The notes below the pieces were generated by a model. The model saw nothing but the letters and a program-made list of their open reading frames with translations, was not told where the DNA came from and did not search any database. A stretch of 14,131 nucleotides of DNA from positions 1 through 14,131 of the forward strand of contig JBDLRP010000008.1 of assembly GCA_039799905.1 (NCBI GenBank). The letters are read 5' to 3'. How positions within the stretch are numbered: the first letter of the stretch is position 1; the number at the start of each line of letters is the position of its first letter. Below, piece after piece: positions 5,201-7,294 of the stretch. Source of the DNA: Pseudomonadota bacterium (GTDB taxonomy: Bacteria; Bdellovibrionota_B; Oligoflexia; Silvanigrellales; Silvanigrellaceae). A program made the translations under genes and the position numbers.

Positions 5201-5975
5201 AACCACTGTTCAGAATCTCCTTGCGGGTGTTCAGCTGAAAAAAGTCGGTCCTTGGTCTTTGCTGGATCAACTCAACCACGAAAAAGCAACCTTGGGTTTT
5301 TACATGTGCGGACATCCAGCCGATCTGCTTGCGGATGACTTGGCTGAAATAGCCCAGGCACCCGTCTGTGACGCACTCAATTTCCTCGACGGAGATGATG
5401 TGCCGGATCACAAACGGCGCACTCTCAAGATTGCGGGCATCATCAGCATGGCTCTCGAGAAGGTCACAAAGGAAGGGAAGAAGTTCGGCGTCTACCGTCT
5501 CGAAGATGGCAGCGGAGAAATCGAGGTTTCGGTATTCGCATCGCAATACGCGGCACTCATCAACAAACCCAAGGTCGGTGACGCCGCATGGATGGAAGTC
5601 AAAGTTCGCAAGGGAATTGAAGAGGGAAGCGTGAAAGGAGTGTGTCAGGCACTGGGACATGTGGCCGACAAACGAGCGGAACTCACCAGACAAATCCTCC
5701 TTGTTGCCGAGGAAAGTTTCATTCAGAAAAACGAAAACCTTGATGAGCTTGTTGCACTCTTGAGTAAACACAAAGGACAGACACCTCTGGCACTCGACGT
5801 CAGCTGGCCAACAGAAAATGTGCGCATCAGGGCGAAACTTGGAAAATTCTCAGTCACGCCCAGCGACGACTTTATTTTCGGGCTCGAAAACAAATGGCCC
5901 GGTGAGATTCAGGTCAGAAGAATCTACCGAGCGAATCCCGCAGCAGAGAAAACTCCTTCCGCATTCAATCGATAA
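2268..5975 (+). CDS. dnaE: DNA polymerase III alpha subunit (1235 aa)
   Basis: PHP motif [70 protein letters not shown], HhH and OB-fold regions. True start is ATG 2268 (AAGGA upstream); the ORF-track start at 2148 lies inside the previous gene. Confidence 0.98.
   Translation: [1235 protein letters not shown]
5892..5972. repeat. Copy 1 of an 81-bp direct repeat (last 27 codons of dnaE)
   Basis: aaatggcccggtgagattcag...gcattcaatcga aligns without gaps to 7205-7285 with 11 mismatches. Confidence 0.95.
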
Positions 5976-6109
5976 TCATTGCGCGGATTGGGACTCGCAG
6001 TGCGGAATCCAGAAAGTGTACATTGTCATTGTGGGAGTAAAAGCTCTATTCAGTCAGTAATGATAACTGGAAACCTTAGATAAGAAGAGATCCCCGCAGA
6101 GACGTCCCG

Positions 6110-6240
6110 TTGTATATCAAAACAAAAATTTGCAATTTTAAAATTAAAAATATCAGTTCGAGTGACTTTAATATAATAATTATAGTTATTTATAAATTTT
6201 TTTAATGTGCAGAAAAAAAACTCCGAAAAGCTTAAATAGA
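6110..6240. promoter_or_regulatory. Very AT-rich intergenic segment, probable promoter region of the hydrolase gene
   Basis: 22 G+C in 120 bp over 6121-6240 (about 18%), in a window of roughly balanced GC. TATAAT at 6172-6177 (+) and ATTATA at 6179-6184 (TATAAT on -). No good -35 box found. Confidence 0.5.
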
Positions 6241-6276
6241 AGGAATCAATCACCCATTCAGGAAGGAGTTAGGAAT

Positions 6277-7188
6277 ATGAAATCACTCAAAGCCAATTTT
6301 ACCGTCTTTCTTGCTCTCGCAGCAACTGCGTGCGGAAGCACATCCACCAAAGATCCACAGGTCTCGATTCCACCTGCCGACAGCAATCCGGCAGCACCCG
6401 CACCGGAAGTCAAGGAAGAGCAACTCGATCTGGCAAGTGGACAGTTCCAGACGACGATCCAGCACAATGATGTGAATGTGAAGCTCATCATTGACAAACC
6501 AACTACACCTTCTGCAGACGTGATGATGACATTTCACGGAACCGTTGAAACTGATGATAAAATCGTTGCCTCTGCGCAAAAAACTTTGGATGAAACCAAG
6601 AAATTGATTTCACGCAAAAATATTCTCTATATCAGCGTTGCATATCCCGAAGAAAATCTTCTCATGGGCGACAATCTCAAACATGCAGAGGCGGCTCTTC
6701 TGTGGGTCAAGCAAAAAGCCAATTCCGCATTGCGCATCAAAACGGAGCGCATCTTTTTGCTCGGCCATTCACAAGGCGGATATCTGGTCACGCGGCTCAA
6801 CAACCTTCACCCGACTGATGGCGTGATTGCCAATGCACCTGGACCATTGAACTTCAAGCTGCGTTGCGAACTTGAAGAGTCAGGGCAAATTCCCGCCAGC
6901 GGAAACTGCCAACGGATGAAAGCAAAATACGGCAGCACCAAAGACAATCCCGACGCTTATCTGGAACGTTCTTTGCTCTCGCATCTGACGGGCTTCAAGA
7001 GCAGAATTCTTTTCACTCAAGGGATGAGCGATGCAAAAATCCAACTCACCTCATGGCCAGTTCTGAAGGAAAAAGTCAAAGCCTGCAATAACTGTGCGGA
7101 ATCTGAATTTATTGAACTTGACGGCAAACACCCTGCTCTGTTCGATAATTCCAAGGGTCCAGATATCGTCAATGACTTTATTAAATAA
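6277..7188 (+). CDS. Alpha/beta-hydrolase fold lipoprotein (esterase/peptidase S9-like, 303 aa)
   Basis: ATG 6277 after GAAGGAG. Signal peptide with lipobox ATA-C at residue 19. FHG oxyanion segment, nucleophile GHSQGG, candidate Asp in QGMSD and His in DGKHP. Confidence 0.85.
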   Translation: MKSLKANFTVFLALAATACGSTSTKDPQVSIPPADSNPAAPAPEVKEEQLDLASGQFQTTIQHNDVNVKLIIDKPTTPSADVMMTFHGTVETDDKIVASAQKTLDETKKLISRKNILYISVAYPEENLLMGDNLKHAEAALLWVKQKANSALRIKTERIFLLGHSQGGYLVTRLNNLHPTDGVIANAPGPLNFKLRCELEESGQIPASGNCQRMKAKYGSTKDNPDAYLERSLLSHLTGFKSRILFTQGMSDAKIQLTSWPVLKEKVKACNNCAESEFIELDGKHPALFDNSKGPDIVNDFIK

Positions 7189-7294
7189 CAAATGGTTCTA
7201 TTGAAAATGGCCCGGTGAGATTCAGTTCAGAAGAATCTACCGAGCCATTTCCGCAGCGAAGAGAACTCTCACTGCATTCAATCGAACATTGTTA
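7186..7294 (-). ncRNA. Candidate structured element (outer stem plus two hairpins), favoured on the minus strand
   Basis: Hairpin A 7205-7250 (17 Watson-Crick pairs plus one wobble), hairpin B 7253-7275, and an imperfect terminal inverted repeat 7186-7205/7277-7294. Covaries with copy 1. RNA versus ssDNA function is unknown. Confidence 0.5.
7205..7285. repeat. Copy 2 of the dnaE-tail repeat, non-coding, between convergent genes
   Basis: 70/81 identical to 5892-5972. In the dnaE frame it reads KWPGEIQFRRIYRAISAAKRTLTAFNR but lacks the TAA. Confidence 0.95.

Follow-up and report, generated by a model that had tools for sequence, protein, structure and literature searches.

The window (the whole stretch of 14,131 nt analysed here, from genome G000) carries the 3′ end of dnaE twice, which raises the question of why the last codons of a polymerase gene should fold, on the opposite strand, into hairpins that recur in a free-standing copy. 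We consider it likely that a 3′ signal of the minus-strand lepB–orf167 transcript, most plausibly an intrinsic terminator, was embedded in dnaE codons, and that insertion of a small islet duplicated it and split the two jobs between the copies. The outcome is tidy but ordinary, and not a new RNA device; as far as its sequence goes, hairpin A looks like an element of a known kind, either an intrinsic terminator or a 3′ stem.

Table 1. Features of the dnaE–orf167 region, with positions in the window.
Feature	Position	Strand	Remarks
dnaE, DNA polymerase III alpha	2148..5975	+	Pfam PF07733, PF17657, PF02811, PF14579; start codon tentative
U-rich tract 3′ of hairpin A	5886..5895	−	7 U in 10 nt; dnaE E-N-K codons
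Repeat copy 1 (coding copy)	5892..5972		Gapped extent runs beyond the dnaE stop
Hairpin A, coding copy	5897..5932	−	13 bp, one bulge, 9-nt loop
Hairpin B, coding copy	5940..5962	−	Decayed; weakened by two copy-1 changes
Inserted islet	5982..7199		~1.2 kb; 44% GC versus 51% in dnaE
Hydrolase leader, AT-rich	5982..6276	+	34% GC
Cargo gene, 303-aa alpha/beta-hydrolase-like protein	6277..7188	+	Pfam matches below cut-off
Outer stem closing A and B	7186..7294	−	7186-7204 with 7278-7294; missed in the initial annotation
Repeat copy 2 (native end of dnaE, displaced and intergenic)	7205..7285		Old stop codon deleted
Hairpin A, free copy	7205..7250	−	7248 and 7250 extend the stem into an A-tract/U-tract base
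Hairpin B, free copy	7253..7275	−	Two adjacent compensatory swaps
orf167 (167-aa product), conserved hypothetical, convergent on dnaE	7292..7795	−	
lepB, signal peptidase I	7955..8653	−	PF10502; upstream of orf167, same strand

Duplication of the dnaE end around an islet

The repeat pair first described in the initial annotation was borne out with its 11 listed substitutions (5892–5972 and 7205–7285 are identical, ungapped, at 70 of 81 positions), and with gaps allowed the duplication covers about 5887–5981 and 7200–7291. Of the 12 relatives in the genus, 11 have an empty site (12 loci), where dnaE directly faces orf167 and a single copy is present; a metagenome scan added three loci, each an empty site that apparently matches a relative already counted. 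The sister species used as outgroup (G003) has the same dnaE-end duplication, there around a 4.8-kb islet that holds, besides the hydrolase gene, one gene with a sulfatase domain and one more. By this comparison, the two repeat copies flanking the islet represent a long duplication of its target, the dnaE 3′ end. In the search for further copies that had been suggested initially, blastn and a covariance model found just two in this genome (next distinct site, E 0.1); among 33 family genomes, with 150 candidates per genome scored in the covariance-model search, strong matches comprised 14 dnaE tails and two free copies, the rest falling below 28 bits. Differences between the copies are not confined to adenines, each copy having A, C, G and T among its bases at the 11 sites, and a DGR (diversity-generating retroelement) TR/VR pair was rejected; a Pfam scan of the 12 proteins of the window found no reverse transcriptase.

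The islet showed neither an integrase or transposase gene nor terminal inverted repeats, and no joint skipping it was present in four RNA runs. Its cargo protein has a putative lipoprotein-like N-terminus; homologs were matched in 7 of 13 genus genomes and, in the other members that carry them, lie at unrelated loci. The last ~110 nt of the hydrolase leader also occur in G003, and are similar to leaders that precede hydrolase homologs elsewhere. orf167 has no Pfam or NCBIfam match.

Insertions with long target duplications have been described by Furuta et al. (2010; PMC2853133, citing Nobusato et al., 2000); according to the accessible text of that paper, the repeat in many cases spans the stop codon, so that the target gene stays intact. 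The locus resembles the cases in that text in repeat length (81 bp, against >30 bp), insert size (~1.2 kb, against <20 kb), empty sites and lack of a mobile-element gene, but differs from them in its cargo, which is hydrolase-like (with a sulfatase in G003) and not restriction-modification, and in a duplicated target with a second function, visibly divided between the copies. Both the empty sites and the duplication point to insertion of the islet with a target duplication of ~90 bp, whereby copy 1 would provide the full coding end of dnaE and copy 2 would be left to orf167 as its 3′ UTR.

Tyrosine-integrase genomic islands at gene 3′ ends have a restored gene end on one side and the displaced native end on the other. 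A remnant of such an island that targeted the dnaE 3′ end, in which the repeat would be the att core and the hairpin mainly a DNA symmetry site, would account for the restored end and displaced fragment seen here, and for inserts at this site in two species. Nonetheless, we consider this origin quite unlikely, because, unlike such islands, neither islet has a tyrosine recombinase in Pfam scans (the four in this genome sit on other contigs), no viral contig matches the core pattern, and the duplicated targets of this genome's other islets are varied and unrelated to the dnaE tail; moreover, the G·U bias of the hairpin described below points to RNA. Serine recombinase and IS4-type searches were negative, with no match to PF00239 or PF01609 in the 94%-complete genome, and no transposase of the IS1634 family, whose elements can have long repeats, exceeded the cut-off in the 13 genus genomes, one of which (G011) gave a weak partial match.

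A minus-strand hairpin in the last dnaE codons

At the empty sites dnaE and orf167 face each other across few bases, so a 3′ signal of the minus-strand transcript would lie inside the last dnaE codons. Hairpin A is present in all 14 genus dnaE tails, encoded antisense to the last conserved dnaE motif (15 residues, genus-wide), and, as judged from these tails, the predicted hairpin is older than the duplication. Minus-strand hairpin energies compared with synonymous recoding gave z-scores of −2.9 to −4.9 in the 12 single-copy tails (0–4 of 1000 recodings), and among 48 dnaE windows the hairpin window was the sole outlier (mean z −3.9; others −1.2 to +0.9); the coding-copy hairpin of G000 was the weakest of the 14 tails by this measure. 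Covariation was observed for two compensatory pairs at synonymous sites, with five C-G/U-A and three G-C/A-U swaps, counts that come from kin genomes and are hence not independent. Paired cells amounted to 97.4% on the minus strand versus 93.4% on the plus strand, and 10 cells were G·U on the minus but unpaired on the plus strand, against two in the reverse sense. Windowed synonymous identity at the hairpin, 0.58–0.62, was high but below the best elsewhere in dnaE (0.63). Beyond the genus, none of 10 tails from the family showed the minus-strand hairpin (best z −1.9). The recoding scores and covariation support the initial proposal that an RNA structure under selection, here on the minus strand, was overprinted on the C-terminus of dnaE, and the signal would be held there by synonymous codon choice.

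Like intrinsic terminators, hairpin A has a GC-rich stem and then a U-rich tract soon after a stop codon, and faces a convergent gene. Seven U in 10 nt follow the stem in 9 of the 14 tails (five or six in four, three in one), a richness that, among the 148 strong intergenic hairpins of this genome, is shared by 20; the stems of these hairpins are long as well (median 14 bp). The orf167 stop lies 41 nt before hairpin A of copy 2, and the corresponding distance is 30–100 nt in those 5 of the 12 relative loci for which a script located the stop. Tail-to-tail intrinsic terminators, including bidirectional ones, are described in the accessible text of PMC13613805 and PMC8060035 (Ju et al., 2019, cited there). 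The free copy resembles bidirectional terminators in gaining an A-tract/U-tract base; it is likely the terminator of lepB–orf167, and is possibly bidirectional. Hairpin A differs from intrinsic terminators in that its ancestral form lies wholly inside the coding sequence of the neighbour, kept by synonymous covariation, in its long stem and 9-nt loop (5–9 nt in relatives; consensus 3–8 nt), and in having an unconserved second hairpin upstream. A consensus terminator scan, which was near chance overall (24 found versus 20.4 expected), did not list the site, with its 9-nt loop, and a literature search covering few subscription journals found no terminator overprinted on a convergent gene.

With the same duplication history, the hairpin might be a protective 3′ stem or processing site, either blocking exonuclease after Rho or serving as an RNase III substrate. 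Rho is encoded in this genome, so a stem that protects ends left by Rho-dependent termination would suit the data just as well, and the long stem, the 9-nt loop and a U-tract that is interrupted and shorter in copy 2 of the window are in its favour, as is the treatment of 3′ stem-loops, in the accessible text of PMC13613805, as common to Rho-dependent and Rho-independent ends. We nevertheless hold it to be unlikely, given that a U-rich tract follows the stem in almost every tail, with more U than most intergenic hairpins here, and that both free copies kept or rebuilt such a tract once the codons were lost (5 U in 10 nt, partly paired, in copy 2 of the window; 6 U in 10 nt in the other). A terminator-like reading is thus preferred, in which hairpin A and its U-rich tract would form the 3′-end signal of a minus-strand transcript ending in orf167. 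In RNA run X14, contigs covered just 5675–5826 and 7297–7802 of the region, with ends, strand and level unreadable from them.

Across the genome, stable antisense structure was enriched in gene tails at tight convergent pairs, with 23 of 308 tails versus 5 of 308 interior controls (p 0.0007). Synonymous sites at tight convergent gene ends can, it seems, be constrained by the terminator of the neighbour, which would matter when essential genes are recoded and when dN/dS is interpreted near the ends of genes.

Separate fates of the two copies

Copy 2 folds as first described, into hairpins A and B (plus z −4.1, minus z −5.3; 0 of 200 shuffles reached this stability), and the strand preference anticipated there holds both in these scores and in the G·U bias across the genus. 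The same hairpins are present in copy 1, as had been claimed, but by itself this copy folds weakly, with z −0.3 on the plus strand and −2.3 on the minus strand. Two adjacent compensatory swaps in hairpin B are likewise present in the sequence, and seven of the nine affected codons are indeed nonsynonymous.

Ancestral states were inferred from four copies (two from G000 and two from G003). The initial annotation had taken all 11 differences as structure-compatible and copy 2 as refined after duplication. Polarisation with the two G003 copies as outgroup shows that the differences are not all improvements of copy 2: at sites 5933/7246 and 5950/7263 the change lies in copy 1, as a loss, whereas 5958/7271 was altered in both copies, in copy 2 from a C-G pair to a weaker U·G. 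Among the changes proposed to improve stems, those at 7248 and 7250 do extend hairpin A, whose 3′ arm in copy 2 is now the exact complement of its 5′ arm. Polarised energies show copy 2 mainly maintained, at −35.5 to −36.2 kcal/mol, and copy 1 decayed, at about −28. Copy 2 has retained its pre-duplication stability in both species (32 and 17 of 3000 random equivalents), while the drift of copy 1 resembled random change (570 and 584 of 3000). The proposal that a 3′ element of the 167-aa gene was freed from coding constraint by duplication is supported, but its 'refinement' afterwards was overstated, the main asymmetry being decay of copy 1 and maintenance of copy 2. In both species copy 1 keeps the protein and its structure drifts, while copy 2 keeps the structure and its codons are ignored, a pattern suggestive of selection. 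The locus would then be a clean natural experiment: one stretch served two strands, as polymerase codons and as antisense stop signal, and after duplication the two species show these jobs parting in the same way, one to each copy.

Pair-compatible changes can also arise without RNA selection, by neutral perfecting of a quasipalindrome through template switching between its arms; such events are documented in the accessible text of PMC7202029 and PMC8794818. This would explain the exactly complementary arms in copy 2 and the swapping together of two adjacent pairs in hairpin B. As a full account, however, it is very unlikely, since template switching gives Watson–Crick symmetry and no one-strand G·U preference is expected from it, yet G·U is favoured on one strand 10 to 2; copy 1 should be affected as well, yet in both species synonymous pairs have been lost from it. 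Switching of template from one stem arm to the other likely supplied mutations, and the clustered multi-base changes probably arose in this way, but alone it leaves the pattern unexplained.

In copy 2, loop A (GTTC) and loop B (GAAC) are complementary, as noted initially, but of the two loop changes ascribed to this copy just the one at 7226 was gained there, polarisation with G003 making the GAAC of loop B ancestral. The original interpretation built on this match a two-hairpin tertiary RNA with a loop–loop kiss and a regulatory role, which the 4-nt Watson–Crick match and the strong fold of copy 2 would suit. We regard it as highly improbable. Kissing-loop RNAs of the purine-riboswitch type have conserved loop–loop complementarity, but here the match occurs in one of the four extant copies, being missing in the other three and in the inferred ancestor (runs of 1–3 nt), and was made by one substitution, with a chance of ~2.4% for strict pairs and 20% with G·U on either strand. 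The duplex would contribute just −1.4 to −2.6 kcal/mol; loop A is the variable part of the hairpin across the genus; the hairpin B sequence is not conserved beyond G000 and G003; and, with 2 nt between stems of ~18 and ~9 bp, the loops would stand far apart. Rfam gave four weak matches in the window (E up to 5) and none over the copies, in line with the earlier remark that the element lacks the cores of purine riboswitches, c-di-GMP-I riboswitches and hammerheads. Under the terminator reading, loop kiss and outer stem would both be by-products.

The outer stem and possible recurrent insertion

With the outer stem included, the minus strand of copy 2 folds end to end (z −7.5). Integron attC sites are characterised by RYYYAAC and GTTRRRY boxes, by extrahelical bottom-strand bases and by an integron integrase. 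Here the hydrolase stop falls within TAAC, GTTA stands at the far end of the element, and the long one-strand fold is attC-like, so that the hydrolase gene might be a gene cassette and copy 2 with the outer stem a single-strand recombination site, a role for ssDNA that had been among the initial suggestions. The tests of this role failed, and it is extremely improbable. RYYYAAC and GTTRRRY are absent beyond TAAC and GTTA, and the stem has a 1×3 loop and a 1×1 mismatch, without one-sided bulges or extrahelical bases; no integron integrase exceeded the TIGR02249 cut-off in 33 family genomes; and the core descends from the coding sequence of dnaE. In G003, TAAC is present without a partner; that genome also lacks the stem, which was found in none of seven homolog 3′ flanks; in G000 the gain from it is modest (55 of 2000 flank shuffles), and two changes in run X5 weaken it. 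A loose genome scan for attC-like folds was unspecific, with 167 matches. The attC-like look of the outer stem is superficial and probably accidental.

How the islet came to lie at this hairpin allows a more tentative proposal, possible but doubtful, namely that an integrase-free route inserts small islets at tail-to-tail hairpins, duplicating 25–95 bp of the target in the host, and that the dnaE tail was hit independently in two sister species. The four copies pair by species at three of three informative sites, all synonymous, although a tree test of this pairing was not significant (AU p about 0.08), and identical species pairing would result if ordinary recombination with empty-site alleles had homogenised the copies. 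Four-fold-site divergence of the shared hydrolase gene was 31/130 versus 159/395 for core genes (p 0.0007). If true, recurrent hairpin-targeted insertion would extend long-target-duplication beyond restriction-modification cargo and suggest a trigger for it; nothing related to islands at dnaE or displaced terminators was found in the literature search, with its few subscription journals. Two further low-GC islets in this genome are flanked by repeats of 21–26 bp, and another, the C39 islet, has the same duplication architecture and an empty site in G003, its left junction falling in the loop of another tail hairpin.

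The dnaE end and its two copies

The repeat and its hairpins are real and, we infer, selected, and they are made of known parts: an antisense 3′-end hairpin on dnaE, an islet-driven duplication and a subsequent division of roles. The only long two-copy repeat of the window, 86% identical between its members, consists of the final 27 codons of dnaE (copy 1) and a free-standing intergenic copy 2; the 11 substitutions listed between them in the initial annotation were borne out, and a lagoon run spanning both copies has zero changes within either 81-mer. With gaps allowed, the duplication extends from ~5887 to 5981, beyond the dnaE stop, and copy 2 reaches the stop of orf167, the 167-aa minus-strand gene. 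Of 12 genus relatives, 11 (12 loci) have dnaE and this gene directly face to face, with a single copy and, where measured, a stop-to-stop gap of 7–57 nt. Since copy 2 reaches the orf167 stop and relatives in which the two genes face each other have one copy, copy 2 is the displaced native dnaE end. Further genomic copies, for which the initial annotation proposed a search, were not found by blastn or a covariance model built here (94%-complete genome), and the proposed Rfam check returned no family matching either copy.

As proposed, copy 2 folds into two hairpins, A and B, whichever strand is taken (plus z −4.1, minus z −5.3; 0/200 shuffles as stable), but copy 1 does not share this strength (z −0.3 plus, −2.3 minus). 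Polarisation of the changes, resting on four copies (two species by two copies), placed 5933 and 5950 in copy 1, 5958/7271 in both copies and eight differences in copy 2 alone. Relative to species-specific pre-duplication states, copy 2 went from −35.5 to −36.2 in the source genome, G000 (32/3000 random equivalents), and from −41.8 to −44.6 in the sister species, G003 (17/3000), while copy 1 weakened as under random change (570/3000 and 584/3000). Copy 2 held or gained stability; copy 1 drifted. The contrast between the copies drawn in the initial annotation is real (5/5000 with 11 random changes on copy 1), but it mixes copy-1 decay with copy-2 upkeep. Stem A was lengthened differently in the two free copies, through the 3′ arm in one and the 5′ arm in the other. 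The clustered changes, in which one arm is copied onto the other, are consistent with template switching (PMC7202029; PMC8794818), a process able to provide mutations of this kind; the strand bias would not follow from it. The suggested loop–loop kiss did not hold up: its 4-nt match is seen in none of the other three copies, needs a single new change (7226) because loop B is ancestral, and arises by chance at ~2.4% (20% with G.U); the pairing contributes −1.4 to −2.6 kcal/mol. Relatives often have a second hairpin in the stretch from the orf167 stop to hairpin A, with no common sequence.

Hairpin A as a probable minus-strand RNA element

By comparison of dnaE tails, hairpin A is older than the duplication. 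A 15-letter dnaE tail motif is nearly invariant across the genus, with the same minus-strand stem at the motif in 14/14 tails. That a structure is overprinted on the dnaE C-terminus is supported: the stem beats 1000 synonymous recodings (z −2.9 to −4.9 in 12 single-copy tails, −3.2 in G003 copy 1 and −2.05, the weakest, in copy 1 of the window) and covaries at two synonymous pairs (5 and 3 double changes), counts that come from related genomes and are thus not independent. The hairpin window was the sole outlier of 48 dnaE windows in eight relatives (−3.9 vs −1.2 to +0.9), and the Pro codon is CCC in 13/13 tails, with 1/132 other four-fold columns invariant; windowed synonymous identity at hairpin A is high, not the top value in dnaE. 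Ten cells hold a G.U pair on the minus strand where the plus strand is unpaired, and two show the reverse, a skew that suggests RNA transcribed from the minus strand. Among 10 family tails outside the genus no comparable minus-strand stem was found (best z −1.9); in one such relative, G015, orf167 ends ~190 nt away. One relative's genome (G009) has two divergent dnaE–orf167 loci (C273 and C269; L014, L038), probably mixed bins, with hairpin A kept in both.

The minus-strand stem lies 30–100 nt past the orf167 stop and is followed in 9/14 tails by a U-rich tract (7 U in 10 nt); just 20/148 of the strong hairpins in intergenic regions of this genome are equally U-rich, and long stems are normal in it (median 14 bp). 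From these features, hairpin A is likely the intrinsic terminator of lepB–orf167. A consensus terminator scan did not list the site, and a protective stem after Rho-dependent termination is possible, Rho being present in the genome; one RNA contig covers 7297–7802, in a set that carries no transcript end or strand information. Genome-wide, antisense z ≤ −3 against synonymous recoding occurs at 23/308 tight convergent gene tails vs 5/308 interior controls (crude ORF calls), an enrichment that makes overprinting a local habit and suggests that overprinted terminators are many in G000. Separately, a perfect inverted repeat just past a 69-aa ORF, presumably ribosomal protein L34-like, is likely the terminator of that ORF.

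The islet, its empty sites and related insertions

The islet between the copies (1.2 kb, 44% GC) consists of an AT-rich leader followed by a single hydrolase-like gene; in G003, the twelfth relative, the same duplication encloses a 4.8-kb islet in which this hydrolase recurs beside a sulfatase-domain gene and a third gene. The islet yielded no integrase, resolvase, or IS4- or IS1634-type transposase, and searches of the genome for the last three were also negative. The layout fits the definition of insertion with long target duplication in PMC2853133, the exception being cargo other than a restriction system. In a literature search outside most subscription journals, neither this locus nor this exact overprint-and-split case turned up.

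Copy 2 with its outer stem superficially resembles an attC site, a reading that was rejected: the boxes depart from the consensus, an integron integrase exceeded the cut-off in 0/33 family genomes, and the outer stem is absent from G003 and found in 0/7 hydrolase homolog flanks. In run X5, two outer-stem changes cost 5.4 kcal/mol (one contig, depth 4.6; possibly error).

At three informative sites, all synonymous in dnaE, the copies pair by species, not position (AU test for alternatives, p about 0.08). The hydrolase differs between species at 31/130 four-fold sites vs 159/395 for four core genes, although in the third G003 cargo gene the divergence is core-like (65/149). Species-wise pairing and low hydrolase divergence suggest transfer after the species split, together with two insertions or subsequent homogenisation with empty-site alleles. 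Hairpin-directed recurrent insertion seems unlikely and is kept as a reading because, on contig C39, the left junction of another islet lies inside the loop of a further tail hairpin (z −4.5). There, the overlapping ends of two convergent genes form a repeat that encloses a 2.4-kb low-GC two-gene islet; the site is empty in G003, from which both repeat copies differ at the same two sites. The dnaE-end layout recurs in this way at another place in the genome.

Coordinates of the repeat, islets and neighbouring features
Feature	Position	Description
Copy 1	5892–5972	dnaE coding end
Copy 2	7205–7285	free-standing
C39 repeat	G000:C39:118198–118243 and 120606–120651 (L055:4199–4244 and 6607–6652)	46-bp perfect direct repeat
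Candidate islet	G000:C21:32700–34033	26-bp perfect intergenic repeats, degenerate similarity adjoining; 1.3 kb, 43% GC
Candidate islet	G000:C26:9596–16956	21-bp perfect intergenic repeats, degenerate similarity adjoining; 7.3 kb, 47% GC
402-aa gene	L037:421–1629 (G003)	HELAH motif
Tyrosine integrase	G000:C33:350–1640	401 aa, then CCACCA-ending stretch and hairpin
Inverted repeat	12008–12044	perfect, 18 bp, 1-nt spacer
69-aa ORF	12065–12274	minus strand
564-aa ORF	10162–11856	minus strand
Pro-Gln repeat	11340–11417	12-nt period

In G003, a 402-aa gene that we take to be metallopeptidase-like, with no Pfam or NCBIfam match, takes the place of the dnaE C-terminus and overlaps it; the G000 homolog of this gene (86% identical) lies on C33, 1.1 kb from the tyrosine integrase. 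The stretch after that integrase resembles a displaced tRNA or tmRNA 3′ end, and no tmRNA was called in the G000 assembly. The 564-aa ORF of the window, without a Pfam match, contains the Pro-Gln repeat.
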